NCBI GenBank assembly: GCA_041652815.1
Contig: JBAZGN010000004.1
Span: forward strand, 79,890 to 143,889
Direction of reading: 5' to 3'
From: Candidatus Omnitrophota bacterium
GTDB taxonomy: Bacteria > Omnitrophota > Gorgyraeia > Duberdicusellales > 4484-171
DNA: 64,000 bases
Shown piece by piece: positions 43,917 to 61,917 of the stretch. Within the stretch, counting starts at the first letter, position 1. Every line of letters starts with the position of its first letter. Below the pieces are notes generated by a model. That model saw only the letters and a program-made list of their open reading frames with translations, ran no database searches and had not been told where the DNA came from. The position numbers and the translations under genes were made by a program.

Positions 43917-43946
43917 GCAATATACTTTAACGACGAATCGGCGCGC

Positions 43947-46468: not shown

Positions 46469-46765
46469 GTCTAATAATTGCTAACAAATTATATAATGAA
46501 TTATGATATATTAAGTTTGTCAGTAAAGTATCTTCCGTAAGACAGGATTAAAAAAGGAGGCGGAGTATAATCTAACAATAAAGGTTTCTATATAGAACAT
46601 AGATTTTCCTGATTTACAAACCAACTTGCAAGAGGAAAAGACTATGTCTCGAGCGTACAAACGTTTCGGGGCAAGCGGTCTTTCACTTTTACTTGCAAGT
46701 TGGGTGAGGGACTTAAAAATGCTTGCCCCCCTTTTATTTTTGGGCAGGCAAGGAGGTGTCTGTAT

Positions 46766-47156: not shown

Positions 47157-47194
47157 GAGATTATTATTGTTTGGAGAACAAATAAAGAAGGAGG

Positions 47195-47512: not shown

Positions 47513-47576
47513 TAAATAATTATAAGCTTCTTGACACCAGCATTATATTAGTATATACTATTTAGTAAATACTAAT

Positions 47577-48191
47577 ATGAAATGGTCAATTTCTTCAAAT
47601 CAGCCAAAGCTTTGTAGCGCTACAAAAATACTTAAAGAGCTTGGTGGAAAACTTAGCAAGAAGATGTTTGAGTATCTCCGGGATACCTTTCGTCTAATTC
47701 CACCTCCCATCAAAAGAAGTGAAGGTAAAGGTATCATAGCCCTATATCCGGAATCCGTTGTGTTTTATTTGCGCCGAATTTTGATTAAGCAGAGCAAAGG
47801 ATTTACCTTCAAGCAGATTAAAGAAAAGCTAAAAATTGATACAGAGCGAATTTTCCAAGAAACCGATGCCTTGAAGCGTCAGTTCGAATTAGAGAAAGAA
47901 TTTAAGAGGCGCTTAGTTCGTGGTTTGAAGACGGGTGACCATCCCGCTTTTGATGATGGAAACGTTATTGGTAGTGCTAATAAGCAGAGTGAAGACATAG
48001 AGTCAATGATAGAGATTGTTAAGAAGGAGTTTAAGAGACAAGCAAGCAAATTAGACGATGTATCAATCAAGGCTATAAGGACCTTGAGAAAGAAATTGGA
48101 TGAACTGGAAAAGCTTGAAGGCGAAAAAAAATTTTCGCAATATGTAATCGAAGAAATTACAAAGGTGGCAAATGAAAAGACAAGGGATTAA
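47577..48191 (+). CDS. MerR/excisionase-like HTH protein with C-terminal coiled coil
   Basis: 204 aa; the N-terminal ~80 aa resemble MerR-type winged HTH; directly upstream of a recombinase. Confidence 0.35.
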   Translation: MKWSISSNQPKLCSATKILKELGGKLSKKMFEYLRDTFRLIPPPIKRSEGKGIIALYPESVVFYLRRILIKQSKGFTFKQIKEKLKIDTERIFQETDALKRQFELEKEFKRRLVRGLKTGDHPAFDDGNVIGSANKQSEDIESMIEIVKKEFKRQASKLDDVSIKAIRTLRKKLDELEKLEGEKKFSQYVIEEITKVANEKTRD

Positions 48192-48741
48192 ATATTTTAC
48201 AAGTGAATTAAAAGGAATCTTGATCAAGACATTAAAATTGCGCCGAGATGCAGTTAGATCATATGCGCTATACGATTTAATGCTTAATACTGGTTTGCGT
48301 TTGGCTGAGGTTATGGGACTTGATGTTGGAGACGTAGAAAACAGAACAGTTCTCGAGGTGATTGGCAAGGGTTCTAAATTTCGAGAAATACCTCTCAATA
48401 AGGCAATCAGAGAGCATATACAAGATTTTTTGAGTTGGAAGAAAAAGAAGGGTGAAGGTTTGTCTGCGGATTCGCCATTATTCGTTAGTAGACTTGGAAA
48501 ACGTCTTAGTAAGCGAGCCGTGCAGCGAGACCTCGCTAAATGGGTTAAGCAAGCTGGAATCGAGGGGCACTTTACGCCGCACTCTCTTAGGCATACGGTT
48601 GGAACAGAATTGTTAAATAAGACAGGGAATTTACGGGTAGTGCAGGAATTTCTCGGCCACGCAGATATATCAACAACTCAGATATATACTCACGTTAGCA
48701 GGGAGCAGATACAGCAGGCTGCTGACCTTTTGGCGATATAA
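48172..48741 (+). CDS. Tyrosine recombinase catalytic domain (truncated, no N-terminal core-binding domain)
   Basis: 189 aa; R(LRLAE)...HSLRHT...GH...Y(IYTHV) catalytic tetrad region. Confidence 0.6.
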   Translation: MKRQGIKYFTSELKGILIKTLKLRRDAVRSYALYDLMLNTGLRLAEVMGLDVGDVENRTVLEVIGKGSKFREIPLNKAIREHIQDFLSWKKKKGEGLSADSPLFVSRLGKRLSKRAVQRDLAKWVKQAGIEGHFTPHSLRHTVGTELLNKTGNLRVVQEFLGHADISTTQIYTHVSREQIQQAADLLAI

Positions 48742-48828
48742 CGACGCATTATATAGAAAAAGCGTCGTTCAATAGCGTTTTTGTGCATAAAGATGGTCAA
48801 AAAATAGGGTATAAAGCGGCGTTCGGAG

Positions 48829-49665
48829 GTGGACAAAATGGACAAAATTGGACCAAGATGGTATAGGGATGAGTCAGGTATTCACGTAGATGTCGAACTT
48901 TTGCCTGAAATAAATATCCTTGTTGAGTTTAACCTGACCGAGAACGAATACAATCAACAAATAGGTATGCTTCTTAATTGGCGTATTACTCGCATAGAAC
49001 AAGAAGCCAAACTGCATTTTGCTGAAAAGAAACCTTTCCGTGTGATAGCTGATATTGTTGGTGTCTCTAAGTCACAGGTTTGCAATGATATTGCTGATTA
49101 TCGTAGAACAATTTTAAAGAGCATCGGGCAAGATATACAAGCTAACGGGTCGGCGCTTGGTCTGTTGGTAGAATTAACTGTGCAGGTTGCGAGCAGAATA
49201 CAGCTTTATTGGGATAAGTATAACGAACTTCAGCGTTCATCGCAAGTGCTGGGAATTCTTTTAGATAGGACATATAACAGGCTTCAAAAGAATCCTAATG
49301 CGAGGGTAACGAATGCCAGCACCTTAAAGGATATAGCTCGAGAGAGACGCGCAATAGCAGAATCACAAAAGAATACCCTTGCGCAGCTTAGAGCAGAAAC
49401 CCAGCAATTGCTAAATATTTATGAGGCTTTTGGTTTGACCAGCATAGAGGCTCTCAGTTTGGTGAACACTGGCGAAGGATATCTACAACAAAAAATAGAT
49501 GAGGTTAAGAGTCTTATGCCTGTGTTAATAAAAATTATCAAGTTAGAAGTTACAGATGAGACACAAAAACGAAACATTTTCGGGAGGCTTGCAAATTTTA
49601 TTAGGGAAAATGCCCTTTCAAAACATTTAAACAATAGTGAGGTGGATTATGAATTTAGAGTATAG
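48829..49665 (+). CDS. Hypothetical protein with putative HTH
   Basis: 278 aa; RVIADIVGVSKSQVCNDI HTH-like segment. Confidence 0.35.
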   Translation: MDKMDKIGPRWYRDESGIHVDVELLPEINILVEFNLTENEYNQQIGMLLNWRITRIEQEAKLHFAEKKPFRVIADIVGVSKSQVCNDIADYRRTILKSIGQDIQANGSALGLLVELTVQVASRIQLYWDKYNELQRSSQVLGILLDRTYNRLQKNPNARVTNASTLKDIARERRAIAESQKNTLAQLRAETQQLLNIYEAFGLTSIEALSLVNTGEGYLQQKIDEVKSLMPVLIKIIKLEVTDETQKRNIFGRLANFIRENALSKHLNNSEVDYEFRV

Positions 49666-49939
49666 CCCAAAAGAAAGATACAACAAGATAGTCGAGATAT
49701 TAGCAGAGGGCGTTATTAGTCTTATCAGATACAGGTTGCGCTTATCTGCAATGTTACACAAGGGTATGAATGAATGCTTGAGTAGAATTATGGATATAAT
49801 GTCTAAGGATAAGTCAGTTAAGTCTTGTGCGATTAGTGGTTATTTTGTCGAGGCTACTATCGAGAAAAATAAACAAAAACGTTATATTGAGCCATTTGGA
49901 AAGGTTTATTCTTTTTCTCAAATGATTACACGCGATTAA
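49637..49939 (+). CDS. Hypothetical protein
   Basis: 100 aa; overlaps the previous ORF. Confidence 0.3.
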   Translation: MRWIMNLEYSPKERYNKIVEILAEGVISLIRYRLRLSAMLHKGMNECLSRIMDIMSKDKSVKSCAISGYFVEATIEKNKQKRYIEPFGKVYSFSQMITRD

Positions 49940-49953
49940 CGCGAGTATCGACA

Positions 49954-50745
49954 ATGTCTTATATTTGTAAAACAGGAAAAGGCGAAGAAGCAGACCCAAG
50001 TTTAGCCATTTTTCCAATCCTCAAAGAGGTAGATGGAAAAAGATTGGTTGTGGGCTCTGCTTTTTTTATTACTAATACGGGAATTTTTGTTACAGCAAAA
50101 CACGTTATAAAGGATGTATTCGACGAAAGAGGCAAGCAAAAATATCCAATATTTGGTTTACAAATTTTACCCGATGATAAATATATAATAAGACCAGTCC
50201 TTAGCTGTTATTCCAATACAAAATCTGATGTGGTGGTCGGTGCATTAGAGCAACAAAGGCATAAAATTACCGGTGAGCCACGATCCAATAAGCTTCTTGT
50301 TCTAACTTTAATTGAGCCAAAACAAGGGGCAAGGATAGTAACTTATGCTTATCCGGGGTCTAAAACCGAAATAGAAGGTAACGTGCAAACCCTTACATTA
50401 AAACCTGAATATTATGATGGAGTATTGGAAGATTATCTTCCGGAAGGTAGAGACAAATCAATGCTTCCTTTTCCGTGTTACAGGGGAAGTATAAGAATTA
50501 TTGGTGGGGCCAGTGGAGGTCCGGTGATGGATGAGCAAGGTCGAGTATTTGGGATAAATTGTACAGGATTCGAAGGAACGAACATCAGTTTTTTTGCCAG
50601 AATAAATGAAATTTTAGCATTGAGAGTTGACGATTTGGTGATAAATGGCGTTCACAGAGATAGTATTGATATTATTGAATTAGCTGAAAGAAAAGTAATT
50701 ATATTTGAACCGTCTTTTAAACGAAGTCAGATAATAAAAAAATAG
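49954..50745 (+). CDS. Trypsin-like (S1/chymotrypsin fold) serine peptidase
   Basis: TAKHV (His), GGASGGPV (Ser) motifs. Confidence 0.65.
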   Translation: MSYICKTGKGEEADPSLAIFPILKEVDGKRLVVGSAFFITNTGIFVTAKHVIKDVFDERGKQKYPIFGLQILPDDKYIIRPVLSCYSNTKSDVVVGALEQQRHKITGEPRSNKLLVLTLIEPKQGARIVTYAYPGSKTEIEGNVQTLTLKPEYYDGVLEDYLPEGRDKSMLPFPCYRGSIRIIGGASGGPVMDEQGRVFGINCTGFEGTNISFFARINEILALRVDDLVINGVHRDSIDIIELAERKVIIFEPSFKRSQIIKK

Positions 50746-50762
50746 TTCCCTCATTTATTTAG

Positions 50763-51026
50763 TTAAGACACGGGAAACATCCTTCTGAGATAATTAACTG
50801 GAATCCTTTCCTTCATTGATACTGGTAGGTCTTCAGGTATATAGTAAATCGGTTTTAAAATCAAACGTTTTTGTCCGTGGGCCGTTCTCAGGATATCAAA
50901 CTCAAATTCATCCGTAAATGCAGTTTGAAGAGAGAGCGTCTCGGGGAGCCATAAAAAAATTGCCCCACCCATTTTCGGGTGGGGTTTAATTTTTTTATGC
51001 TTTTTGTATAAGGCTCGAACCGTCAA
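50763..51026 (-). CDS. Hypothetical protein
   Basis: 87 aa; the only minus-strand ORF near the island right end. Confidence 0.3.
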   Translation of the reverse strand: MTVRALYKKHKKIKPHPKMGGAIFLWLPETLSLQTAFTDEFEFDILRTAHGQKRLILKPIYYIPEDLPVSMKERIPVNYLRRMFPVS

Positions 51027-51221
51027 GGGAGTTTGAGGGAAAGTATTTCCCTCAAATTATTTAAGCTTCTTCGTAAGGAAGGGGAGTGACAGGTGTGAAT
51101 CCGAAGGATGAGCCCGCCAGAGAGGGGAAACGTAGTTTCCTCTTTGTGGAGAGGAATGAGCGAAGTGAATGACGAAGGTTCGCCGAAGGGAAAGCCCTAC
51201 CCGGGGAGTTTTGACAAAAAT

Positions 51222-51248
51222 AGCCCAGCTTTATGCTGGGCTTTTTTG
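51222..51248 (+). terminator. Rho-independent terminator inside repeat copy A
   Basis: agcccagc ttta tgctgggct + tttttg; the same terminator occurs at 51972-51998 and 60273-60300. Confidence 0.6.
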
Positions 51249-51374
51249 TCAAATTGCCTTGGTAAAAGGGCGAGAACACCTGCCGAGTCTGTGTAAATTT
51301 ACTTCGTAAATTTACACAGTATCCAGCGAGGCGGGACGAGAGCCCATTCCAACTTCAAAAGACGGGGGAGTTTT

Positions 51375-51412
51375 TGACTTTTAAACCCTCTGTGATAATA
51401 TATTGCAGAGGG
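51375..51412 (+). promoter_or_regulatory. Promoter/operator module copy 1 (TTGACT-N16-TAATAT; palindrome AACCCTCTG..CAGAGGGTT around the -10)
   Basis: tttttgacttttaaaccctctgtgataatatattgcagagggtt. Confidence 0.6.
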
Positions 51413-51464
51413 TTTTTTGGTTTATTTTTTTAAAGTTAATTGGTATAAAAAAGGAGGGTTGGAT

Positions 51465-51908
51465 ATGAGAGGAAGGTGTATAATTATTTTATCCTTAGCG
51501 ATAAACCTATTTTTTTGTTTTGTTTCGTTTAGTGCGACTCTTCCTGATGAGAATGCTGCAAAAGATTTAACTAATAAAATTATGACAAAAATTGCCAACG
51601 GAGACATCGATAATGCCTTTAAGCTTATGAAGCCTTACGTCCCTATTAGTGCAACAGAAATTGATTCAGCTGCAATTCAGACGAAAGCACAATTAGAACA
51701 GTATGGGCAAAGGTATGGTGAACCGATTGGTTTTGAATTTATTGATTCAACAAAAATTGGTGATTCCGTGTTCAGATTTCGTTATCTTGCAAAAATGAAA
51801 AATAACGCTTTGCCCTGGGTTTTTATTTTTTATAAAACCACAGACGGATGGACATTGAATAACTTTAGTTGGAAGGATAGCGTAGTAAACTTATTTGAAA
51901 AGAATTAA
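51465..51908 (+). CDS. Secreted hypothetical protein
   Basis: ATG after AAGGAGGG; signal peptide MRGRCIIILSLAINLFFCFVSFSA. Confidence 0.5.
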   Translation: MRGRCIIILSLAINLFFCFVSFSATLPDENAAKDLTNKIMTKIANGDIDNAFKLMKPYVPISATEIDSAAIQTKAQLEQYGQRYGEPIGFEFIDSTKIGDSVFRFRYLAKMKNNALPWVFIFYKTTDGWTLNNFSWKDSVVNLFEKN

Positions 51909-51944
51909 CATTAGTTTCTTAACATCAACCAGTTGCTAAATTCG

Positions 51945-52200
51945 TCCAACCAGGGGAGTTTTGACAAAAATAGCCCAGCTTTATGCTGGGCTTTTTTGTC
52001 AAATTGCCTTGGTAAAAGGGCGAGAACACCTGCCGAGTCTGTGTAAATTTACGAAGTAAATTTACACAGTATCAGCGAGGCAGGTGGAGAGCCCTACCCA
52101 ACTCAACCTTAATATATGTATACAGAGAGTTGTCCCTTTAGGGGTTGGGGAGTTTTTGACTTTCTAACCCTCTGTGATAATATATTGCAGAGGGGTTTGT
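51945..52200. repeat. Long composite repeat, copy B
   Basis: Near-identical to copy C 60247-60500, including the perfect 31-nt palindrome ctgtgtaaatttacgaagtaaatttacacag (52039-52069). Confidence 0.7.
52154..52195 (+). promoter_or_regulatory. Promoter/operator module copy 2
   Basis: tttttgactttctaaccctctgtgataatatattgcagagggg. Confidence 0.6.
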
Positions 52201-52250
52201 TTACAATATAAAATACACATTATATATAGTAGAAAAACATAGGAGGTTCG

Positions 52251-53459
52251 ATGCTGAAAAAACATTTGTTATCCATAGTGGCTTTGCTGGCGATAAGCTT
52301 GAGTATGCCGCTTTCTAGGCTATGCGCTGAAGAATCAAATGGTGTTGTAGCTGCCAATAATCAATTTGCTTTTGAGCTTTATGCCAAATACAAATCAAAA
52401 GACGGAAATATTTTCTTCTCTCCTTACAGTATTTCTTCGGCATTAGCAATGACATATGAAGGCGCAAGGGGAAAGACCGCAGAGGAAATGCTGGTAGTGT
52501 TTCATTTTCCTAAGGATGGCGCTCTCCGTAGAGAAGGCTTCTTAGCCATAAATAATCAAATAAATAAGCAAGATAAAAAATATGAGCTACGTGTAGCAAA
52601 TGCTTTATGGGCAGAGAAGGATTACACATTCCTTGAGAATTATTTTAAGTTAATAAAAGATTACTATGGCGGAGGAGTGACAAATTTGGATTTTAAGTAT
52701 GACGCCGAAAATTCACGCCTTGCAATAAATACTTGGGTTGAAGAGCAAACAAATAATAAAATAAGGAATTTAATTCCTCCGGGCATAATTAATAATATGA
52801 CACGGTTAGTCCTTACTAATGCAATTTATTTTAAAGGAAAATGGCTTAAGCAGTTTGATGAAAAAAATACCATTGATGATGATTTTAGAATAAGCCCGGA
52901 GAAGTCTATTAAAGTTAAAATGATGAAATTAACCAGTAATAAACCAGATTTTAGTTATGCGGAAACAGACAAACTCCAGGTATTGGAATTACCTTATGAT
53001 GGCAAAGAGTTATCAATGTTGATACTTCTTCCCAAGGCGGGCGATTTAAAATCCGTAGAAGAATCACTAAATTCTCAAATGTTGACAGAATTAAAAAACA
53101 ACCTTTATGCAAACTACGTTGACATATTTTTACCAAAATTTAAGGTTGAAAGTAAATATTTTATGGCTGATGATCTTAAAGAAATGGGCATGCCTATGGC
53201 ATTTTCGGATAAGGATGCTGATTTTTCAGGTATGGATGGCATGAGAATTTTATTTATTGGACAAGTGATACACCAGGCTTTTGTTGAGGTGAACGAAGAA
53301 GGCACAGAGGCAGCTGCTGCAACAGCTGTAGTTATGGAATGCACGGGTATCTTTGAACGAAAAGTATTCAAAGCTGACCACCCATTTATATTTATAATTC
53401 AAGAAAAAAAATCCGGAAATATTTTATTTTTGGGAAGGGTTAATAATCCAGAAAGTTAA
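52251..53459 (+). CDS. Serpin (serine protease inhibitor), secreted
   Basis: 402 aa; signal peptide; NAIYFKGKW, reactive-centre-loop hinge EEGTEAAAATAV, C-terminal FKADHPFIFIIQE...ILFLGRVNNP serpin signature. Confidence 0.85.
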   Translation: MLKKHLLSIVALLAISLSMPLSRLCAEESNGVVAANNQFAFELYAKYKSKDGNIFFSPYSISSALAMTYEGARGKTAEEMLVVFHFPKDGALRREGFLAINNQINKQDKKYELRVANALWAEKDYTFLENYFKLIKDYYGGGVTNLDFKYDAENSRLAINTWVEEQTNNKIRNLIPPGIINNMTRLVLTNAIYFKGKWLKQFDEKNTIDDDFRISPEKSIKVKMMKLTSNKPDFSYAETDKLQVLELPYDGKELSMLILLPKAGDLKSVEESLNSQMLTELKNNLYANYVDIFLPKFKVESKYFMADDLKEMGMPMAFSDKDADFSGMDGMRILFIGQVIHQAFVEVNEEGTEAAAATAVVMECTGIFERKVFKADHPFIFIIQEKKSGNILFLGRVNNPES

Positions 53460-53470
53460 TCATGAGGTAT

Positions 53471-53505
53471 TTTTGACTTTCCAACCCTCTGTGATAATAT
53501 ATTGC
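53471..53505 (+). promoter_or_regulatory. Promoter/operator module copy 3 (right palindrome half absent)
   Basis: tttttgactttccaaccctctgtgataatatattgccagcc. Confidence 0.5.
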
Positions 53506-53564
53506 CAGCCTCGCATAGCTCGGTAGGCGGGCAGAGAGTTTCTGATTGAGGTGCAATTCAGTAT

Positions 53565-53906
53565 ATGGAAATAGTTACAAATACATTGGATCTTAATAGG
53601 CTTAGAGAGATGGCAGCTGGTATTTTTGGCAACCTAGTAAAAGCAGTTGTCGACGTTGATAAAGAACTACTCGCAGTTGACGGGGAGTTACATTCTGATT
53701 TAGAAGCGTTGTTACTTGAGAGCGGTTCAAGGCAAAAAAGCCTTTGGGGGATTAATCTTTATCCGGAGATGCAGGGGAAAGATTTTATTGAGTTTGATTC
53801 CGTGATAAATATGCGTCCTTCCCAAGATAACAGGAGCCGCGGAGTGGATGATGAACAAATACGCAAGAAAATTATAGAAGTTGTTAGCAAGAGGATTAAA
53901 CAATGA
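53565..53906 (+). CDS. Hypothetical protein
   Basis: 113 aa; 4-nt overlap with the next ORF. Confidence 0.4.
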   Translation: MEIVTNTLDLNRLREMAAGIFGNLVKAVVDVDKELLAVDGELHSDLEALLLESGSRQKSLWGINLYPEMQGKDFIEFDSVINMRPSQDNRSRGVDDEQIRKKIIEVVSKRIKQ

Positions 53907-54235
53907 GTTATCAACATAAAAGCCTTGCGGCTGGACGTTGGAAGCAATTATCATTTATTGAACAAATGGCAAACATTGGAAGCGAGGTAGAACGCGCTCT
54001 CAACTGGCAAGCTAAACATAATCCCGCCTACACGCAGCAGGCATTTGAGCGTTCTCTGGAATTAATAGATTTGACTATGGATAATTTAAAAGGGTTCCCC
54101 CGCCTTAAAGAACTCGCCCGTTTACGAGAAGCAATCGTGGATTATTTTTTTGGAGAAAACCAGTTTAAATTTACTGATAAATCTTTAAGGGGTTATTTCC
54201 TAAATTTTATATTTGCAGCCCGCAGGAACCATTAG
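53903..54235 (+). CDS. Hypothetical protein
   Basis: 110 aa; ATGA overlap with the upstream ORF. Confidence 0.4.
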   Translation: MSYQHKSLAAGRWKQLSFIEQMANIGSEVERALNWQAKHNPAYTQQAFERSLELIDLTMDNLKGFPRLKELARLREAIVDYFFGENQFKFTDKSLRGYFLNFIFAARRNH

Positions 54236-54333
54236 CGCTGTTAAACAGCATAACACATTTTTTTGTTTTATTCAGACTCACCAAAAAAAATCGAGCTCAA
54301 TAGACAATATAGATATTTTTCCCAATAGGGCAT

Positions 54334-54375
54334 TTTGACTTTTCAACCCTCTATGATAATAAATTGCAGAGGGTT
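54334..54375 (+). promoter_or_regulatory. Promoter/operator module copy 4
   Basis: attttgacttttcaaccctctatgataataaattgcagagggtt. Confidence 0.55.
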
Positions 54376-54416
54376 TTTTCTTTGGGATAAAATAATAAAG
54401 AAGATGGAGGTAGATT

Positions 54417-54653
54417 TTGATAGGTATCAGCTTACCGCAGGCTGACGATTTTAGTGCAGCAAAAATCTTCGCTTGCTTTATTTTTAGTACGATTGGGTTT
54501 GCTGTTTTTGTGTATGGTAAAAAAAATAAATTATTGCGGCCTATGATTATCGGGGCTGCCTTAATGGTGTATCCCTATTTTTTCTCAGAAACGCTTGTCA
54601 TTTATCTTGTCGGTATTGCCCTTACCGTGGCATTGTATTTCTGGCGGGAGTAG
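54417..54653 (+). CDS. Small 2-TM membrane protein
   Basis: 78 aa; followed by terminator 54692-54717. Confidence 0.4.
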   Translation: MIGISLPQADDFSAAKIFACFIFSTIGFAVFVYGKKNKLLRPMIIGAALMVYPYFFSETLVIYLVGIALTVALYFWRE

Positions 54654-54691
54654 ACAGAAGCAATTTAAATAATAATAGCCAATAAAAAAAT

Positions 54692-54717
54692 GCCCGTCTT
54701 TTTGACGGGCTTTTTTA
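54692..54717 (+). terminator. Rho-independent terminator
   Basis: gcccgtc tttttg acgggc + ttttttat. Confidence 0.65.
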
Positions 54718-54845
54718 TCGTTGTCCTCTGGCGGCGAGAGTTTTTTGGCGATAGCCAAGGTTAAGTAAGGGTAATTCTCGTAGCAATCGCAGGCATGTCT
54801 CTGTTCTTTACGCGGAAGTTCCCGCTATTTCAACGAAAAATTTTG

Positions 54846-54872
54846 ATTTTGACGAAATCTTGTGATAATATT
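54846..54872 (+). promoter_or_regulatory. Degenerate promoter/operator module copy 5 (TTGACG..TGTGATAATATTG)
   Basis: ttttgacgaaatcttgtgataatattgtgg just upstream of the ORF start. Confidence 0.4.
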
Positions 54873-56706
54873 GTGGCATATGAAAATAAGCTATAAAAGC
54901 TTATTTGTAACGATTGTTTTTCTGGCTTTTCTGGCAAGCGGACTGTTAGCCGATTCCTATGCCGACTCTGGGTCATATAAAAAACCCGTATATAAAATAA
55001 AACCCACTTACAAGAAACCACCCTCTACAGGCGGAGCAACGGTTTATCCGACTACAACAACTTCGCCTGAAACGCCTGTATATACAACAAAACCTACTTA
55101 CAAGAAACCACCTTCTACAGGCGGATCAACTGTTTACCCAACTACAACAACTTATCCTGAAAATCCAGTATATACAATAAACCCTAACTATAAGAAGCCA
55201 CCCGCTACAGGCGGAGCAACGGTTTATCCTCCTGCTACAACTTCGCCTGAAACGCCTGTATATATAATAAAGCCTACTTATCCGCTTCCTTCATTTTCGC
55301 CTTCGCTGCCTTCACAGCCGCAGCAGCAGGAAGACGAGCCAGAGCTTGGCCGGACACAGCATGCGCTTGGTCTTGGTGTCTTTAGTGACGCGTGGGACTA
55401 CGTCTCAGGTAAGGCAAGCGATGGTTATGATGCTTTAAGAGACCTCGCCGAAGGCGGTTATGATAGAGCTAGGGATGCTGCTAGCGACACCGGAAATTGG
55501 TTTTCGGATTGGTTTACGGATCCTGTGGGGGCGTCTAATGATTTGTTTAACGCGGCGGTTGATACGTTTCAGGATTTTTTAAACGGAGTCGCGGATTTCG
55601 GGCAAAGCATTTTTAACGGAGCAGTCGATGCATCTCAATATATCGGCAATCGTTTCGTAGATTTTTTCCAGGATATAACCGGCATTGACGGATTTGTAGA
55701 CAGGGCGCAGGGTTGGGCGAATGACGCTACAGACGCGATTCAGGATGGTATTAATGACTTTATAGATTCAGCGCAGGCTGTGCAAAATGACGCTATTGAT
55801 GCTGCTCAGGATGGTGCAAACAGCGTTTTTGATTCCATATATGATGCCGCAAGAAACGCCAGAGAAGCCTTTGAAGACGCGATTGATGCGGCACTGGGAC
55901 GAAACAGAGGGCAGACCGGAGCAGGCAGTCAGGGTGCTGAACCAGCCGTCGGACCCGAAGAAGAAGCGCCTTCTGGACAAGGACCTGCTGGACAAGGACC
56001 TGCTGGACAAGGACCTGCTGGACAAGGACCTGCTGGACAAGGACCTGCTGGACAAGGACCTGCTGGACAAGGACCTGCTGGACAAGGACCTGATGGACAA
56101 GGACCTGCTGGACAAGGACCTGCTGGACAAGGACCTGCTGGACAAGGACCTGCTGGACAAGGACCTGCTGGACAAGGACCTGCTGGACAAGGACTTCCTA
56201 ATCAGCCACCCGCTCAGATTATCGTTCCTAACGCTCCGGTCCAAGTTCTCCCAGGCCAGCCTGTGACAACTCAGACAACCGCCATTCCGAACGCGAGTTC
56301 TGGAGCGCAGCAGATTTCAAAACAGCCGGGAAGTGCGGAGTCATTAACGCCGCATCCTGAAAGGCTTCTCGTAAAAAAAGCAAGGCCGGCAACTCCTGCG
56401 TGGATTTTACTTCTATTATATGCCTACATGGCAATGTGCTTACAGCGTATCGCCAAAAAAACCGCTACGTCGAAGGGATGGTTAGCATGGGTGCCTTTTG
56501 TTAATTTGTATTTATCCTGTAAGATCGCACGAAAGCCTGGCTGGACGACATTATTTTTCTTTATTCCGGTTATGAATATAGTGATGGCAATTATCGTAAG
56601 TATCGGTATTGCCAAAGCGAGGGGTAAGCCTGGCTGGCTAGGCCTTTTTTCGTTCATTCCTGTAGCCAATCTTATACTGCCGGCATATCTGGCCCTTTCC
56701 AGGTAG
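54862..56706 (+). CDS. Secreted repeat protein: Pro-rich YKKPPSTGG-TVYPTTTTSPETPVYT repeats, D/A-rich region, ~13x GQGPAG collagen-like repeats, C-terminal 2-TM W..W.P..N domain
   Basis: 614 aa; signal peptide; 18-bp DNA tandem repeats at 55966-56202; C-terminus homologous to ORF 20378..21109. Confidence 0.6.
   Translation: MIILWHMKISYKSLFVTIVFLAFLASGLLADSYADSGSYKKPVYKIKPTYKKPPSTGGATVYPTTTTSPETPVYTTKPTYKKPPSTGGSTVYPTTTTYPENPVYTINPNYKKPPATGGATVYPPATTSPETPVYIIKPTYPLPSFSPSLPSQPQQQEDEPELGRTQHALGLGVFSDAWDYVSGKASDGYDALRDLAEGGYDRARDAASDTGNWFSDWFTDPVGASNDLFNAAVDTFQDFLNGVADFGQSIFNGAVDASQYIGNRFVDFFQDITGIDGFVDRAQGWANDATDAIQDGINDFIDSAQAVQNDAIDAAQDGANSVFDSIYDAARNAREAFEDAIDAALGRNRGQTGAGSQGAEPAVGPEEEAPSGQGPAGQGPAGQGPAGQGPAGQGPAGQGPAGQGPAGQGPDGQGPAGQGPAGQGPAGQGPAGQGPAGQGPAGQGLPNQPPAQIIVPNAPVQVLPGQPVTTQTTAIPNASSGAQQISKQPGSAESLTPHPERLLVKKARPATPAWILLLLYAYMAMCLQRIAKKTATSKGWLAWVPFVNLYLSCKIARKPGWTTLFFFIPVMNIVMAIIVSIGIAKARGKPGWLGLFSFIPVANLILPAYLALSR
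55966..56202 (+). repeat. 18-bp tandem repeat (ggacctgctggacaagga) x~13 inside a CDS, encoding (GQGPAG)n
   Basis: Near-perfect copies with one GAT variant. Confidence 0.8.
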
Positions 56707-56774
56707 CGCAAAGAATAAGGGGCAAGTTGTGCTAGTTCGATAATTCGTTAACTCCGTTTCCCCAAACATCAACC

Positions 56775-56858
56775 AGTTGCGAAATTCGTCTAATGAGCCA
56801 GCATCTTTTGAAGCTGAAGGCGCACAAAAGTGCGTTGGCGAATTATCCCCGAAGGGGA
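56775..56858 (+). repeat. ~85-nt repeated leader element (copy 1)
   Basis: agttgcgaaattcgtctaatgagccagcatcttttgaagctgaaggcgcacaaaagtgcgttggcgaattatccccgaaggggac is identical at 61751-61834. Confidence 0.7.
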
Positions 56859-56873
56859 CTACTATGTCAGTTT

Positions 56874-56913
56874 TTGACTTTCCAACCCTTTGTGATAATA
56901 TATCACAAAGGGT
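56874..56913 (+). promoter_or_regulatory. Promoter/operator module copy 6 (extended perfect palindrome ccctttgtgata-ata-tatcacaaaggg)
   Basis: tttttgactttccaaccctttgtgataatatatcacaaagggtt. Confidence 0.6.
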
Positions 56914-56964
56914 TTTTATTTTAAGTCAAATAGGAGGATCATAGAATTAGATAAAGGATTAGGC

Positions 56965-57744
56965 ATGGATAACATTAAGATTTGGTTACCGTTATTATTA
57001 GCTTTTTTGGCTGGGCTCTTTACATTGCTTGGTAGCCTTGTTTGTTTTCTTGTAAGAGACCTTAAGAAATCTTATCTGGAATTTTCTCTGGGGTTGTCAG
57101 CTGGAGTAATGATTTATATTGCCTTTGTAGAATTATTAACTTCGTCAATTAGAAACATCGGTTTCTTAAAAGCAAATATGTCATTCTTCGGAGGTATTAT
57201 CCTGATTATGTTTCTCGATTTTGTTATTCCCCACGAATATATTGACGAACATATTCAAAGGACAGGGGGAGATAAGAAAATTATGAAAGCCGGAATATTT
57301 ATTGCCATTGGCTTGGCAATTCATAATTTTCCGGAGGGCTTAGCGGTTTTTATGAGCTCTATGGTAAATATTAAATTAGGTATTTCTTTAGCTGTAGCAA
57401 TAGCGTTGCATAATATTCCCGAAGGTGTAGCTATAGCAATGCCGATTTTTTACGCCACCAAAAGCAGAAGAAAAGCATTCTGGTATTCTTCTTTATCAGG
57501 GATTGCCGAACCCATTGGAGCTATTGTAGGTATGTTGGTATTAATGCCATTTCTTAAATCAAACGTTTTATCTTATTGTCTTGCTGCTATTGCCGGGATA
57601 ATGGTTTTTATCAGTTTTGATGAACTTCTGCCTTTATCATGCGAGAATAAGAAGTCGCATGTGACTATTTTAGGTATTATATTAGGAATGTTAATGATCT
57701 TCCCCCGAAAAAGTGGACACAACGAAGAGTTGGTATTAGCATAA
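56965..57744 (+). CDS. zupT: ZIP-family zinc transporter ZupT
   Basis: 259 aa; HNFPEGLAVF and HNIPEGVAIA metal-binding helices. Confidence 0.8.
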   Translation: MDNIKIWLPLLLAFLAGLFTLLGSLVCFLVRDLKKSYLEFSLGLSAGVMIYIAFVELLTSSIRNIGFLKANMSFFGGIILIMFLDFVIPHEYIDEHIQRTGGDKKIMKAGIFIAIGLAIHNFPEGLAVFMSSMVNIKLGISLAVAIALHNIPEGVAIAMPIFYATKSRRKAFWYSSLSGIAEPIGAIVGMLVLMPFLKSNVLSYCLAAIAGIMVFISFDELLPLSCENKKSHVTILGIILGMLMIFPRKSGHNEELVLA

Positions 57745-57773
57745 AAACCGACTCTTAAAAAGGAGGATGTCCA

Positions 57774-58082
57774 ATGGAAGGTCAAAGCGTCAGAATGAAA
57801 CGGTTTGATAAGGCATTTAAGATTCAAGCTGTCAAAATGGTTACTGAAGAAGGCCAAAAAGCCTCAGAGGTAGCCCGTTCATTAGGAATCCATGCTAACA
57901 TGCTCTACAATTGGAAAAAAAGATACTCCGCTGAAGGCGACAAAACCTTCGTAGGCAAAGGTCATCTGAGTGAGATAGTATCTCTGCGGCGGAAGCTACG
58001 TGACGCCGAGATGGAGATAGAAATCCTAAAAAAAGCAGTCGGCATATTTTCAAAAACGACCGAGAACGGTGCGAGTTTATAG
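57774..58082 (+). CDS. IS3-family transposase OrfA (HTH)
   Basis: 102 aa; HTH; ends just past the A7G slippery site ctaaaaaaagc. Confidence 0.75.
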   Translation: MEGQSVRMKRFDKAFKIQAVKMVTEEGQKASEVARSLGIHANMLYNWKKRYSAEGDKTFVGKGHLSEIVSLRRKLRDAEMEIEILKKAVGIFSKTTENGASL

Positions 58083-58114
58083 ACTCAAATCGTTTAAGCT
58101 ATCCGCTTGAGAAA

Positions 58115-58930
58115 ATGTGCCGGGCAGTAGAAGTATCCAGGAGCGGATACTATGACTTCAAAAGAAGGCCTAAAAGTAAGAACAGAATCAATAACGAGAA
58201 GCTGCTCATTGAAATACGCAGGGTATTCTGGGATAATAACCGTAATTACGGTAGCCCTCGAGTATGGGATCAGTTGCGTAATAAGGAACAGATTCTTTGT
58301 TCTTTGAATCGCGTTGCCAGGCTTATGCGCTACAATAACCTGGTTGCCATACAAAGGCGTAAATTCCGGGTAACAACAAATTCAAAGCATAACTATCCCG
58401 TATGGCCGAATGTCTTAAATAGAAACTTCTCTGTAGAAAAGCCCAACGCTGTCTGGGTAACGGATATAACCTATATCTGGACATTTGAGGGCTGGCTGTA
58501 TCTTGCGGCAATCATGGATTTGCATTCCAGAGGTATCGTAGGCCTTGCTATGGATAAGACTATTTCCGATACCTTGACGCTGCAGGCATTGGGACAGGCA
58601 ATCCTAAGACGTTCACCGCCCAAAGGGTTGATTTGTCATTCCGACAGAGGAACTCAGTATGCCTGCAACGATTTTAAGGCATTATTGGCTCAGCATGAAC
58701 TTATCGGCAGCATGAGCAAAAAAGGCGATTGCTGGGATAATGCCGTTGCTGAGAGTTTTTTCCATACGCTTAAAGTAGAGCTTATACACCGGATGAAATT
58801 CAGAACCAGAGAAGAAGCGAAAAGAAAGATATTTGAATACGTGGAAATGTATTACAACACCAAGAGGGCACATTCAACACTTGGCTACTTAAGCCCTTTT
58901 GAGTATGAAAAGCAGGCGCTAGTATTTTAA
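58115..58930 (+). CDS. IS3-family transposase OrfB (integrase core DDE)
   Basis: 271 aa; D...D...E rve domain (WVTDITYI, HSDRGTQY, E in VAESFF); -1 frame relative to orfA. Confidence 0.8.
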   Translation: MCRAVEVSRSGYYDFKRRPKSKNRINNEKLLIEIRRVFWDNNRNYGSPRVWDQLRNKEQILCSLNRVARLMRYNNLVAIQRRKFRVTTNSKHNYPVWPNVLNRNFSVEKPNAVWVTDITYIWTFEGWLYLAAIMDLHSRGIVGLAMDKTISDTLTLQALGQAILRRSPPKGLICHSDRGTQYACNDFKALLAQHELIGSMSKKGDCWDNAVAESFFHTLKVELIHRMKFRTREEAKRKIFEYVEMYYNTKRAHSTLGYLSPFEYEKQALVF

Positions 58931-58944
58931 AGGAGAAAGGAAAT

Positions 58945-59559
58945 ATGAAAAAATTAATAATTTCAACACTTTTATCATTTTGCTTTTTATCTCTTGTGTA
59001 TGCGAGCGAGTCTGATAATTTCCTTAAAAAAGGAAATCAGTATTTTAGAGAAAAATCATATGAGAAGGCTTTAGGACAATATCAAGAGGCTCTGAAAATG
59101 TCACCCAATGATGCTGAGGCATATTTCAATATTGGCCTCATATACAGGGAGAAAGGGAATTATAAAGAGGCTAAAGAAAAATTTCTAAAGGCTGAAGAAT
59201 TATACACACTGCGCAATCAACAAGAAAAAAAGAAAGAGGCAGAAAAGTTACGAAGATCAATGGAGCTTGTGTTAAGAAATCAAAGAAGGGCCGGATATCT
59301 ATTATTTATCTTTATCCCTTTATTCATCTTTAGCGTGTTTCAAATGAACAAAAAAAGAATAAAATTCTCTCAAGCTAATAATGTAATAGCCTTCCTTCTA
59401 ATCATAACAAGTTTATTAGCTAATCGTTTTTTGCCATTTTTTCAACGGCAGTCTTTATTGTGGTGGAATAGAGCGATTATATGTTTTGGAACAGGTGTTG
59501 GGGGTTTATTTTTTCTTGTAAAAGGTTTATTAACCTATTATAAGCTAAGAAAAAAATAA
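58945..59559 (+). CDS. TPR-repeat protein with C-terminal TM helices
   Basis: 204 aa; signal peptide; 2 TPR; 2 C-terminal TM. Confidence 0.5.
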   Translation: MKKLIISTLLSFCFLSLVYASESDNFLKKGNQYFREKSYEKALGQYQEALKMSPNDAEAYFNIGLIYREKGNYKEAKEKFLKAEELYTLRNQQEKKKEAEKLRRSMELVLRNQRRAGYLLFIFIPLFIFSVFQMNKKRIKFSQANNVIAFLLIITSLLANRFLPFFQRQSLLWWNRAIICFGTGVGGLFFLVKGLLTYYKLRKK

Positions 59560-59718
59560 AATGGAGTTTTTAGTCACTGAAAACAGGCGTTATTATCTTA
59601 ACAATCTGTCCACTAAAGAGGGGAAGGTCATAATAATTGCTTTGAGCCTATACTTGTTTTAAGGATACTATTTTGATCGAGTTTTAATTTAGTAAAGTAT
59701 AATCAGTTACTGCGAGTT

Positions 59719-59758
59719 TTGACTTTCTAACCCTCTGTGATAATATATTGCAGAGGGT
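59719..59758 (+). promoter_or_regulatory. Promoter/operator module copy 7
   Basis: gttttgactttctaaccctctgtgataatatattgcagagggtt. Confidence 0.6.
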
Positions 59759-59796
59759 TTTTTTGATTGGGGTGAAATAAAGAAGAAGGAGAAAAG

Positions 59797-60183
59797 ATGG
59801 AGATTAAACGACCAAGAGGCGTCATAATTTTTACTTTATTAGGCATATTTTTCCTTGTTATGGGTTCAACAAGATGGTTGCCTTTCAAACCACTACAATT
59901 AAGCATATTTATAATTTGGCTAATTTTATATTATTTCCTTTTTCAATTAAAGAATTGGAGCAGGATTGTTCTTTTGATTCTTAATATATTTTTAGGTGGG
60001 GCGGTTATTTTGCTTGTTGTTGGATTCATAGTATTATATATTTTTAAACCAGATATGCTTCTTATGGATAGAATAACCAATCAACCAATTTCTTACTGGC
60101 TTGGTTTTGCTCTACAAATGATTTATGTCTATACTTTTATCTATTATTTTACTCGTCCCGCAGTAAAGGCACAGTTTAAATAA
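59797..60183 (+). CDS. Small 4-TM membrane protein
   Basis: 128 aa. Confidence 0.45.
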   Translation: MEIKRPRGVIIFTLLGIFFLVMGSTRWLPFKPLQLSIFIIWLILYYFLFQLKNWSRIVLLILNIFLGGAVILLVVGFIVLYIFKPDMLLMDRITNQPISYWLGFALQMIYVYTFIYYFTRPAVKAQFK

Positions 60184-60246
60184 TCAGAGTCATTTCTTTG
60201 GTCAGTTTTTCCGCTTCCCTAAACATCACCCAGTTGCTAAATTCGT

Positions 60247-60500
60247 CCAGCCCGGGGAGTTTTGACAAAAATAGCCCAGCTTTATGCTGGGCTATTTTTG
60301 TCAAATTGCCTTGGTGAAAGGGCGAGAACACCTGCCGAGTCTGTGTAAATTTACGAAGTAAATTTACACAGTATCCAGCGAGGCAGGTGGAGAGCCCTAC
60401 CCAACTCAACCTTAATATATGTATACAGAGAGTTGTCCCTTTAGGGGTTGGGGAGTTTTTGACTTTCTAACCCTCTGTGATAATATATTGCAGAGGGTTT
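60247..60500. repeat. Long composite repeat, copy C
   Basis: cccggggagttttgacaaaaatagcccagc...; perfect palindrome 60341-60371; promoter module at the 3' end. Confidence 0.7.
60458..60500 (+). promoter_or_regulatory. Promoter/operator module copy 8
   Basis: tttttgactttctaaccctctgtgataatatattgcagagggtt. Confidence 0.6.
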
Positions 60501-60535
60501 TTTATTTTAAATAATACCGTTAAAAAGGAGAGCGA

Positions 60536-61678
60536 ATGTTTTTAAAAAAAATGCGCATAGTAAAATTTATTATTTTTATTTCCCTGGCGTTATCTTTTGG
60601 TTTAAGCAATGTTTTAGCACGAGAAACTCCCGCAGAAGCTTTTACGATTTATGATAAGGGAATAAAATATAATGAGAAAGGCAGTTATGATGAGGCAATA
60701 AGTGCGTTTAACAAAGTTATAGAACTTGATTCTAACTTTGTGAACGCTTATATACAACGTGGCTTTGCATATTATTCTAAAGGCAATTTTGATAAGGCTA
60801 TCTCTGACCTCACCAAAGCTATTGAAATTAATCCTACTAATGATGTTTCTTACTATTATAGAGGTGTGGTTTACTTTAGTAAGAATAACTACGACAAAGC
60901 TATATTAGACTATACTAAAGCCATTGAATCAAATCCTAAATATGCAGAGGCTTATTACAGACGTGGGCTTACCTATGGGATGCAAGGTAGCTTTGCCCAG
61001 GCTATATATGACTTTAACAAAGCCATTGAATTAAATCCTAAATATGCAGAGGCTTATTACGGACGTGCTGGGTTTGCCTATGCTAAGCAAGGTAAGCGCT
61101 TTCAAGCTATCTCTGATTTTACTAAGGCTATTGAATTAAATCCTAACTTTGCAGAGGCCTATTGCGGCCGTGGGGTTATCTATGGAATGCAAGGCAATTT
61201 TTCCCAAGCCATATCTGACCACACTAAAGCCATTGAAATAAATCCTAACATTGCAAAAGCCTATTACGGACGTGGGTATGGCTATGCCAAACAAGGCAAT
61301 TTTTCCCAAGCCATATCTGACTATACTAAAGCCATTGAAATAAATCCTAAAGATGAAAAAGCTTATACTAATCGGGCAGATGTGTATCTTAAGAAAGGTG
61401 ATTATGACAAAGCTATTTTAGATAGCACAAAGGCAATACAAATCAATCCCAATGGGTTTATAGCCTATTACAACCGAGGGCTTGCTTATTATTGTATGGG
61501 GCAATACGATAAAGCGTTAGCAGGTTACAAAGAAGCTATAAAGATAAAGCCAGATAAGGAAGCTTATGACGACTTTGTTAAATATGTTCCAGAGAAGAAG
61601 TCTTCTGATGCTAAAGACATAAGAGAGGAAATACTTCAACTTCTTAAAGAAAAACTGGATTTAACGGATAAGAAGTAA
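60536..61678 (+). CDS. Secreted TPR-repeat protein
   Basis: 380 aa; signal peptide; ~9 tandem 34-aa TPR units (AISD.TKAIE.NP..A.AYY.RG..Y). Confidence 0.75.
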   Translation: MFLKKMRIVKFIIFISLALSFGLSNVLARETPAEAFTIYDKGIKYNEKGSYDEAISAFNKVIELDSNFVNAYIQRGFAYYSKGNFDKAISDLTKAIEINPTNDVSYYYRGVVYFSKNNYDKAILDYTKAIESNPKYAEAYYRRGLTYGMQGSFAQAIYDFNKAIELNPKYAEAYYGRAGFAYAKQGKRFQAISDFTKAIELNPNFAEAYCGRGVIYGMQGNFSQAISDHTKAIEINPNIAKAYYGRGYGYAKQGNFSQAISDYTKAIEINPKDEKAYTNRADVYLKKGDYDKAILDSTKAIQINPNGFIAYYNRGLAYYCMGQYDKALAGYKEAIKIKPDKEAYDDFVKYVPEKKSSDAKDIREEILQLLKEKLDLTDKK

Positions 61679-61750
61679 TGTTCTTAGACTATCTTAGCGC
61701 AATTTGACCCAGTTTTTCACATAATTCTTTTTGATTATCGAACAGTAGAA

Positions 61751-61834
61751 AGTTGCGAAATTCGTCTAATGAGCCAGCATCTTTTGAAGCTGAAGGCGCA
61801 CAAAAGTGCGTTGGCGAATTATCCCCGAAGGGGA
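61751..61834 (+). repeat. ~85-nt repeated leader element (copy 2)
   Basis: Identical to 56775-56858. Confidence 0.7.
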
Positions 61835-61848
61835 CAACCCGGGGAGTT

Positions 61849-61885
61849 TTTGACTTTCCAATCCCCTGTGATAATATATTAAGAA
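61849..61885 (+). promoter_or_regulatory. Promoter/operator module copy 9 (diverged palindrome)
   Basis: tttttgactttccaatcccctgtgataatatattaagaagg. Confidence 0.5.
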
Positions 61886-61917
61886 GGTTTTTGTCCTAAT
61901 TTTAATATCTAAAAACT

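Follow-up and report, generated by a model that had tools for sequence, protein, structure and literature searches.

A repeated 45-nucleotide intergenic unit with features of an interleaved terminator and promoter in an accessory-gene array of Omnitrophota

The unit and its copies

We analysed a stretch of 64,000 nucleotides (nt) from a Candidatus Omnitrophota bacterium (NCBI GenBank assembly GCA_041652815.1, contig JBAZGN010000004.1, positions 79,890 to 143,889 of the forward strand), hereafter the window, in which a unit of about 45 nt recurs upstream of accessory genes between 51.37 and 61.89 kb. Eight copies lie there, all on the plus strand and co-oriented, where none is expected by chance, and the other 53 kb of the window holds none. 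The initial annotation of this region had counted nine copies of a promoter-plus-operator module. Eight of them are real and are located before the open reading frames (ORFs) that it named, with 68-95 nt from TTGACT to the downstream start codon at each and 14-276 nt from the upstream stop codon to the unit; the ninth, before a gene for a collagen-like protein, turned out to be merely a related promoter that lacks the palindrome. The 41-nt motif as first written matches five sites at up to three mismatches and none in shuffled sequence, and the total of eight was reached with a pattern limited to conserved positions together with a repeat finder. The left 30-43 nt of the unit, (GGGGAG)TTTTTGACTTTNNAACCCTCTGTGATAATATAT, were likewise found eight times, on the plus strand only, and the TTGACT hexamers start at 51374, 52156, 53473, 54335, 56874, 59719, 60459 and 61850. 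A covariance model built on 16 copies, R1, retrieved no extra copy from positions 1-51000 of the window or from the 8.4 kb past its end (L008, source contig).

The genes that follow the copies have little in common; the serpin, DUF5674, ZIP, tetratricopeptide repeat (TPR) and PAS proteins were identified with Pfam. Copy 1 (51365-51420) runs from GGGGAG-T5 through a -35 hexamer (51374-51379) and a TG-extended -10 hexamer (51396-51401) to a T-run, with a hairpin at 51384-51414; it was called both as a promoter and as a 15-bp terminator, folds at -22.7 kcal/mol (z -4.7), and precedes the gene for a 147-amino-acid (aa) signal-peptide protein (ATG at 51465). Copy 2 (52147-52202), with its -35 at 52156, its -10 at 52178-52183 and its hairpin at 52166-52196, lies upstream of the serpin gene (52251). 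Copy 3 (53473-53545) begins 14 nt past the serpin stop codon and ahead of the DUF5674 gene (53565), and carries a 26-nt GC-rich hairpin element between ...ATTGC and its right arm, CAGAGAG. In copy 4 (54335-54381) the -10 reads TAATAA and G>A and T>A changes break the upper stem; a gene for a 78-aa membrane protein follows (54417). Copy 5 (56874-56920) is a perfect 14-bp palindrome with the compensatory arms CCCTTTG/CAAAGGG (z -6.8) and precedes the ZIP transporter gene zupT (56965), just as the initial annotation had it when it described this variant as fully palindromic. Copies 6 (59719-59766) and 7 (60450-60505) stand upstream of genes for a 128-aa membrane protein (59797) and a 380-aa TPR protein (60536). 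Finally, copy 8 (61841-61893) has an intact promoter, a degenerate right arm and no stable hairpin (z -0.2), and is followed by the PAS gene (61918), whose orthologues in two related loci (L015 and L017; related loci are cited by such numbers throughout) likewise bear the unit.

The collagen-like/DUF5684 gene has a promoter of its own (54843-54882, plus strand), composed of TTGATT, 17 nt and a TG-extended TAATAT (54866-54871), without the palindrome and with only a TGTGATAATAT stretch in common with the unit. Judging from the sequence, its start codon is likely to be the ATG at 54880 rather than the GTG at 54862; this ATG sits nine nt past the -10, and the transcript is probably leaderless. 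The L007 orthologue (67% aa identity) shows the same promoter geometry at 2246-2302.

Promoter and hairpin within the unit

A promoter composed of TTGACT, a 16-nt spacer and a TG-extended TAATAT was called at all eight sites. These are near-consensus signals of the sigma-70 type, and the strong sigma70-type promoter with extended -10 proposed in the initial annotation is upheld in this respect. Across 24 copies from about ten Omnitrophota contigs TTGAC and TGATAAT are at least 90% conserved, and the consensus (A3, 24 insert-free copies) reads (c)GGGGAG TTTTT GAC TTT NN AACCCTCTG TGATAATATAT TGCAGAGGGTT TTTTT. Conservation of the -35 and -10 hexamers extends to positions outside the stem and towards its apex, where pairing alone would permit any sequence, and this speaks for a promoter. 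The window also contains ordinary TTGACA/TATAAT promoters, for example upstream of its tRNA-Asn gene, so that the organism can be taken to use sigma-70-type signals.

Downstream of the units lie A-rich leaders of 30-60 nt that end in GGAGG, in which no alternative promoter was evident. When copies upstream of unrelated genes are compared, the homology between them spans the unit and the 5' untranslated region (UTR) and ends at the start codon. For instance, window positions 54333-54420 are 78% identical to L001 5929-5847, with the 78-aa protein encoded downstream in one case and an unrelated 137-aa protein in the other, and conversely L015 has the gene for the 78-aa protein (83% nt identity) but no unit before it. 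The portable piece would therefore be the terminator, the promoter and the leader together. One copy, L001_7570, lacks the right arm and has an ATG 9 nt after the -10 without a ribosome-binding site, a geometry that makes sense only with transcription starting at the unit. The promoter reading of the unit is supported at the level of sequence, also by the close tie of the copies to the start codons downstream and by the hexamers that persist where the right arm has been lost.

The -10 hexamer is located in the apical part of a hairpin. That an inverted repeat straddles the -10 had been recognized before, but it is longer than was thought: the arms pair over 14 positions, AACCCUCUGUGAUA-AUA-UAUUGCAGAGGGUU, two G·U pairs included, and a T-run follows directly on the 3' side. 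The sense RNA folds at -18.4 kcal/mol (z -6.6), compared with -14 kcal/mol for the antisense RNA, which has an internal loop and no U-tract, and -9.6 kcal/mol for the sense-strand DNA; RNA beginning at the predicted start site is unstructured (z 0.1). A hairpin followed by a U-tract, as in a Rho-independent terminator, is thus present on the same strand as the promoter, and terminators were called at five of the eight window copies, with stems of 12-15 bp (14-15 bp in four), a 3-nt loop and a T-run.

Pairing is maintained when the sequence of the arms changes. Over 24 distinct copies, pairing holds in 92% of cells, both partners have changed in six pairs (eight cells), and wobble pairs have turned into Watson-Crick pairs, U·G to U-A eight times and G·U to G-C three times. 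None of 500 column shuffles reached the observed value on any of five covariation measures, which, the sequences being related, point clearly one way without being strict probabilities, and when the partner was slid by 1-3 columns the pairing amounted to only 32-62%. Compensatory changes are exemplified by CCCTTTG/CAAAGGG (zupT), CCGTCTG/CAGACGG (L007), CTCTA/TAGAG (L015) and AACTCTC/GAGAGTT (L016).

The two halves of the unit are also found apart from each other. The promoter is intact and the hairpin lost in w61850 and L017_8632, both before PAS orthologues, and in L001_7570; conversely, hairpin and T-run are intact and the promoter has decayed in L007_676 (where the -10 is lost), L018_723 and L015_2497. 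In the first of these (L007 676-812), the one with the compensatory CCGTCTG/CAGACGG arms, there is, 30 nt on, a fluoride riboswitch with an Rfam score of 53 bits, together with a crcB-like gene. Five copies in three genomes hold a GC-rich hairpin of 26-55 nt between ...ATTGC and the right arm, with the arm and the T-run kept; such insertions would fit a branched terminator, or else recombination among terminator-like elements. In L006 the unit starts 3 nt past the tRNA-Asn 3' end, a position that favours a terminator because termination is needed right after a tRNA gene. Comparison of the copies establishes the anatomy of the unit, the covariation of its arms, the independent retention of its two halves and the tie of its position to the downstream start codon.

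Occurrence in other genomes

Exact-pattern scans found the unit in three metagenome-assembled genomes (MAGs), namely STA_84 and SO_2017_LW3 bin 47, both Candidatus Omnitrophota, and DBS2-5.bin57, listed as 'bacterium', as well as in three metagenome contigs; viral contigs scanned for the motif gave none. Loci fetched through homologues of the PAS protein contributed copies from four more contigs. Other Omnitrophota contigs thus carry the unit, though patchily. Everywhere it was found, it forms local clusters, one unit per gene and in the same orientation as the genes, and species-representative MAGs have only one to three exact matches each, all within one locus. Four RecR-anchored Omnitrophota loci, with RecR 74-78% identical to that of the window, have no units, and for this reason we regard the unit as patchy and low-copy and not as a general Omnitrophota promoter type. 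Often accompanied by its leader, it recurs before unrelated accessory genes that encode mostly secreted or membrane proteins. At the gathering threshold, Rfam reported no known family at the unit or at the neighbouring repeat elements D5, D8 and D10 (see below) in the window and 13 of 18 loci, and the same was true at E<=5 over 50.5-62.5 kb; the only matches were tRNAs, group I introns and a single fluoride riboswitch. A literature search returned no description of the motif in Omnitrophota.

The tRNA-Asn locus and the accessory-gene array

The ancestral anchor of the array is a tRNA-Asn(GTT) gene (38171-38493, plus strand) that contains a 247-nt group I intron (38206-38452). A 16-nt direct repeat of the tRNA 3' end (AGCCCTACCCGGGGAG), present at 38475-38490 and again at 51193-51208 on the plus strand, brackets a 12.7-kb island (38475-51208) that separates the tRNA gene from the array. 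The island encodes a large serine recombinase (38479-40107, minus strand), a TIR-domain protein (43947-45269), a truncated Xer-like recombinase and a trypsin-like peptidase, and its final 200 nt match L003 3707-3906 at 98.5% identity. As the sequence has it, before the island inserted the tRNA-Asn gene directly adjoined the D5 unit and the first copy of the 45-nt unit. STA_84 (L004) has an orthologous locus with exactly that pre-insertion arrangement, in which neighbouring proteins are 60-71% identical to those of the window.

The far end of the array is the PAS gene, and the genes beyond it (EF-hand, GHL10, MarC, CNNM) are common to L016, where just 6 kb, holding different genes, separate RecR-tRNA-Asn from PAS. 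L003 in turn combines the 98.5%-identical island end with an 89%-identical PAS gene and only about 3.7 kb of different genes between. Because orthologous loci with conserved flanks enclose different genes, the array is, on this comparison, a hypervariable accessory region, which in part of the Omnitrophota is flanked by tRNA-Asn and a conserved PAS gene. An IS3-family transposase pair (orfA/orfB, 57774-58930, plus strand) lies inside it, between the ZIP and TPR genes.

Some of the array genes vary in length as well. The collagen-like/DUF5684 gene (54880-56706; L008 2542-4188) contains 15-nt tandem repeats at 55906-56244 and 90-nt repeats at 54980-55280, and its product differs between samples of the same population, with 614 aa in the window (as listed) and 548 aa in L008; the TPR protein has 380 aa in the window and 346 aa in L009. 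As to the intron of the tRNA-Asn gene (Rfam 82 bits), it splits the anticodon between positions 35 and 36; ARAGORN misses the split gene and calls the spliced sequence tRNA-Asn. The same intron-bearing tRNA-Asn occurs in L004 and an intron-less one in L006, L011 and L016, while L012 and L013 have group I introns at the corresponding locus downstream of RecR.

Neighbouring repeat elements

Three further families of repeats, and a family of GC-rich hairpins, surround or enter the unit. The D5 unit (51196-51373, plus strand, with more copies at 51946-52155 and 60248-60458) is roughly 200 nt long, comprises a bidirectional terminator hairpin and a long conserved hairpin, and ends in a GGGGAG that resembles the tRNA-Asn 3' end; the same arrangement follows tRNA-Asn in L004 (310-150, minus strand). 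It may be a small RNA or the remnant of a small integrated element. Its nested hairpin of about 90 nt, GGGC...CCTGCCGAG-CTGTGTAAATTTAC-loop-GTAAATTTACACAG-...GGCAGG...GCCC, covaries between the window and L004.

The D10 element (AACATCAACCAGTTGCTAAATTCGTCCAA, 51921-51949, plus strand) lies upstream of many copies of the unit, between the 3' end of the gene before it and GGGGAG. It recurs in the window at 56765-56793, 60222-60250 and 61741-61769, and also in L001, L002, L006, L007 and L016; the consensus is AACATCA(A/C)CCAGTTGC(N)AAATTCGTCCAA, followed by (C)GGGGAG and by the T5 that runs into the -35. That D10 is a decayed 3' half of tRNA-Asn is a lead at most: aligned with that half and compared with shuffles, only two of eight copies are significantly similar. 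Read as a candidate small antisense ORF, D10 would encode a recurring LDEF(S/R/C)N(W/F)(L/V)M..E..K in which Leu codons vary in an apparently synonymous way; the sense frame looks just as much like coding sequence, and one copy is frameshifted. A 77-aa antisense ORF over the copy at 60222 (60176-60409) had no Pfam match.

Between D10 and GGGGAG, two places in the window hold a structured element, D8 (56794-56863, plus strand, and 61770-61839), in which an AATTCG/CGAATT pairing is kept unchanged by all of five sequences and an outer stem, CCCC/GGGGA, comes just before T5. D10 and D8 are found together at 56755-56876 and 61731-61852 and in L003 (6755-6878), L006 (905-1025) and L016 (8898-9090), as a conserved structured 3' UTR or junction element of 120-190 nt whose inner hairpins covary and in which a CCCCGAAGGGG hairpin is present.

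GC-rich hairpins of the family CAGCCTCGAATAGCTC...GGCTAGACGGG occur in the window at 53506-53531 and in L005 (7110-7085, 6420-6380), L007 (1668-1720, 6267-6320) and L001 (5385-5330). They appear in two settings, either inside the unit, downstream of the -10 and ahead of the right arm, or alone and terminator-like, followed by CAAAGG-T7 (L001). We considered and rejected the idea that the 26-55-nt insertions into the unit are leader riboswitches: the hairpin is a simple GC-rich one, the genes downstream are unrelated, and there is the standalone, terminator-like form in L001.

Interpretation and alternatives

The reading that we favour, and hold to be reasonably probable, is that each unit is a terminator for the upstream gene and a promoter for the downstream gene, the two being interleaved. 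Initiation and termination activity, the start site and the strength of the promoter are what we infer from the features described above. A polymerase arriving from an upstream gene, or from tRNA-Asn, would transcribe both arms, so that the hairpin would form and transcription would stop in the U-tract. A polymerase initiating at the unit itself would start about 7 nt after TAATAT, at the purines of GCAGAGGG, within the descending arm; its transcript would escape the terminator because the ascending arm is missing from it, and would run into the A-rich leader with its GGAGG ribosome-binding site. Each gene would then be an insulated single-gene transcription unit, probably strongly and constitutively expressed. 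The near-identity of the copies would probably be kept by this double constraint and by recombination or gene conversion.

Several observations weigh against this reading. The copies at 53473, 54335 and 61850 lack a convincing terminator fold, and several units already follow a canonical terminator in the D5 unit, where the hairpin would be redundant. The covariation tests used related sequences, so that independence is overstated. In addition, the lower stem, CCCTCTG/CAGAGGG, is far more conserved across genomes than pairing requires: the unit is about 90-95% identical across genomes whose proteins are 60-70% identical, and the RecR proteins of the window genome and of STA_84 share only about 71% identity. 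An extra sequence-specific reader such as a protein, recent horizontal spread or gene conversion are possible sources of this conservation.

A protein reader was what the initial annotation proposed, namely the operator of a dimeric repressor straddling the -10, in a promoter shared by a tightly co-regulated regulon that would possibly respond to metal or host. In its favour, the -10 is covered by a perfect dyad of 9 bp, CCCTCTG(N13)CAGAGGG with AA/TT flanks, which extends to 14 bp at zupT; the lower stem is conserved past the needs of pairing; and a shared promoter would imply similar expression of the genes. However, the inner five positions are in most copies symmetric only through G·U, which indicates RNA pairing and not a DNA dyad, and the zupT copy changes both half-sites symmetrically within one genome, something that a single protein would not tolerate. 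Where 26-55 nt separate the half-sites the right arm is kept, at odds with the fixed spacing of an operator, and the T-run after the repeat, the uniform orientation of all copies, the copy directly after a tRNA gene and the palindrome kept without a -10 in L007_676 are equally hard to reconcile with repression at the -10. The co-varying transcription factor suggested earlier did not emerge either, since in the gene tables of related loci no transcription-factor gene travels consistently with the arrays; neither a candidate regulator nor a link to zinc was found. We thus consider the operator and its regulon improbable. The accompanying description of the genes as secreted or membrane ones is roughly true by inspection of the translations (seven of nine), but what they form is an accessory array and not a demonstrated regulon. 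More generally, a palindrome over a -10 need not be an operator, and the annotation is corrected in this sense.

The junctions could instead be recombination sites, with single-gene cassettes (unit, gene, D10 or D10/D8, GGGGAG) inserted successively at the tRNA-Asn 3' end; the hairpins would then be DNA-level recognition structures comparable to attC, the promoter and terminator properties would be secondary, and the junction point would fall between GGGGAG and TTTTTGAC. The arrays of L004, of L006 and, ancestrally, of the window do begin at tRNA-Asn, and array content differs wholly between orthologous loci with the conserved flanks RecR-tRNA-Asn and PAS-EF-hand-GHL10. (C)GGGGAG, identical to the 3' end of the tRNA acceptor, precedes most units, D10-GGGGAG resembles the tRNA-Asn 3' half in two window copies (p<=0.004), D10/D8 forms an imperfect palindrome whose ends are conserved and whose centre varies in length, and the same gene exists with and without the unit in different genomes. 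Yet no dedicated recombinase adjoins the arrays. The sole tyrosine recombinase is the truncated Xer-like ORF of 189 aa (48172-48741) in the separate island, which scores 90.7 bits on TIGR02249 against a cut-off of 265 bits for integron integrases. RYYYAAC/GTTRRRY core sites are missing, the AAC/GTT flanks being, by inspection, non-complementary (TTCT... versus ...TTTT), and the palindrome, at 31 nt, is shorter than known attC sites. The similarity of D10 to the tRNA is non-significant in six of eight copies, many array genes have no flanking junctions, the dependence of pairing on G·U points to RNA and not to DNA, and homologous recombination between repeats of 50-250 nt is enough to explain the variation. 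On these grounds cassette insertion seems to us unlikely, and with it an Omnitrophota gene-cassette system, analogous to integrons, in which self-expressed cassettes with a D10/D8-GGGGAG end are captured at tRNA-Asn by a recombinase acting in trans, for which we see little probability too. Were it true, the tRNA gene would be the equivalent of attI, and this would be previously undescribed. An integron proper was rejected, as the recombinase is under the family threshold and core sites are absent.

The unit might also be a selfish small palindromic repeat, similar to a MITE (miniature inverted-repeat transposable element) or a repetitive extragenic palindrome (REP), that spreads locally and has its promoter and terminator features by accident. 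Other palindromic repeat families are present throughout the intergenic regions of this genome, elements are nested (GGGGAGTTTTGAC repeats lie on either side of the D5 unit, and hairpin elements within the 45-nt unit), and the patchy distribution among Omnitrophota, with none in the four loci whose RecR is 74-78% identical, would suit such an element. Its copy number is nevertheless low and strictly local, with none in the rest of the window and so few exact matches per whole MAG; the copies keep one orientation and a set distance to the start codon that follows; target-site duplications were not visible next to the 45-nt unit; the hexamers persist independently of the hairpin and the hairpin independently of the hexamers; and the unit is about 90-95% identical between genomes whose proteins have diverged to 60-70%. 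The clustering of the copies does not fit a REP element, and Pfam scans of the ORFs at 38.5-64 kb of the window gave no IS200-like/RAYT domain; nor do few, local, co-oriented copies without visible target-site duplications fit a MITE or a Correia-like element. We therefore think a selfish repeat very unlikely. Least plausible of all, to the point of being highly improbable, is that the array is one long operon in which the hairpins are partial or regulated attenuators and the promoter-like hexamers are unused. The genes are co-oriented, the gaps between them are short and the hairpin-plus-U-tract anatomy is there, but conservation of the -35 and -10 is seen outside the hairpin, in its loop and in copies without a hairpin alike, the ATG of L001_7570 sits 9 nt past the -10 without a ribosome-binding site, and a unit is also found behind a tRNA gene, a distinct transcription unit.

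If the unit indeed works both as terminator and as promoter, as we propose, it would be a natural insulator part of 45 nt, whose hairpin stops incoming transcription while the transcript of the embedded promoter is immune to it, and synthetic biology could take a ready design principle from it. In an uncultured and often host-associated phylum, at least 20 unrelated genes have a copy upstream, and the dual function would explain how a compact genome can run a dense accessory array (serpin, zinc importer, TPR, collagen-like and small membrane proteins) with each gene independent of the others. The covariance model R1 provides a handle for finding this variable 'surface and secretome' locus in Omnitrophota MAGs.

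Comparison with known systems

The unit is a repeated regulatory intergenic element that differs from its known relatives by its interleaved signals, clustering, fixed orientation and leader. Its parts are those of ordinary sigma-70 promoters and Rho-independent terminators, with the same hexamers, spacing, extended -10, GC-rich stem base, short loop and U-tract, and ordinary promoter/terminator pairs follow the same logic of isolating transcription units. Unlike them, it interleaves both signals in 45 nt, with the -10 in the hairpin and the predicted start site in the descending arm, and it is one sequence family (about 90-95% identity) before unrelated genes in several genomes. In Escherichia coli, terminators sit nearer to the upstream than to the downstream gene, and families of near-identical terminators are reported only with IS186 (bioRxiv 10.1101/2024.07.17.603904); the unit behaves oppositely in the first respect.

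Among repeats with regulatory signals, the Correia repeat-enclosed elements, which are MITEs of Neisseria, are small intergenic inverted repeats with sigma-70-like promoters that drive adjacent genes, and fold into RNA hairpins upon co-transcription (PMC10969869). They are 100-200 bp long, have terminal inverted repeats and target-site duplications, and are dispersed in more than 100 copies in both orientations, whereas the unit is 45 nt long, low-copy, confined to one array and co-oriented, and its hairpin resembles a terminator and not an RNase III substrate. The SPRITE repeat of Streptococcus pneumoniae resembles a Rho-independent terminator and, with BOX and RUP, belongs to elements that cluster and insert into each other (PMC10969869), much as D5, D8 and the hairpin insertions are nested here; an embedded promoter or a conserved 5' leader is not mentioned for SPRITE in that source, and SPRITE, BOX and RUP are genome-wide.

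Integron arrays likewise consist of co-oriented, unrelated, mostly single-gene units with imperfect palindromes of variable length, and have hypervariable content between conserved flanks. Here, in contrast, there is no IntI and there are no R and L core boxes, each gene has a promoter, pairing involves G·U, and the anchor is a tRNA gene and not attI. There is also a likeness to tRNA-linked islands, as the array adjoins tRNA-Asn, next to a 12.7-kb island with a serine recombinase and a duplication of the tRNA 3' end, and in other genomes recombinase genes or genes of the integrative and conjugative element type are found at the same tRNA-Asn locus; the array itself, however, has no integrase, and its units are just 0.5-2.5 kb.

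Further observations in the window

Two other tRNA loci in the window are of note. At 19350-20083 an initiator-like tRNA-Met(CAT) is split by a group I intron of about 660 nt (Rfam 63.7 bits, 19783-19996) that holds a 111-aa ORF (19492-19827), and the tRNA 3' end is present as a 23-nt direct repeat (AAATCCTGTCCCCGCAATGTCTT), at 20068 and again at 20197. At 34880-35514 there is a disrupted, partial copy of tRNA-Ser(GCT) with the inserted repeats D9 and D13, and a small GIY-YIG-like ORF lies upstream of the intact tRNA-Ser (35422-35514), which suggests another tRNA-associated insertion. Many intergenic regions (8293-8545, 13807-13916, 17517-17740, 25030-25147 and 29100-29520) are built of short direct or inverted oligomer repeats; the oligomers differ by locus (CACAGAT..., GTTACGAAGGTTACG..., CGGTTGCGTTA..., CCGCGGATTA...), are unrelated to the unit, and often flank a gene symmetrically.

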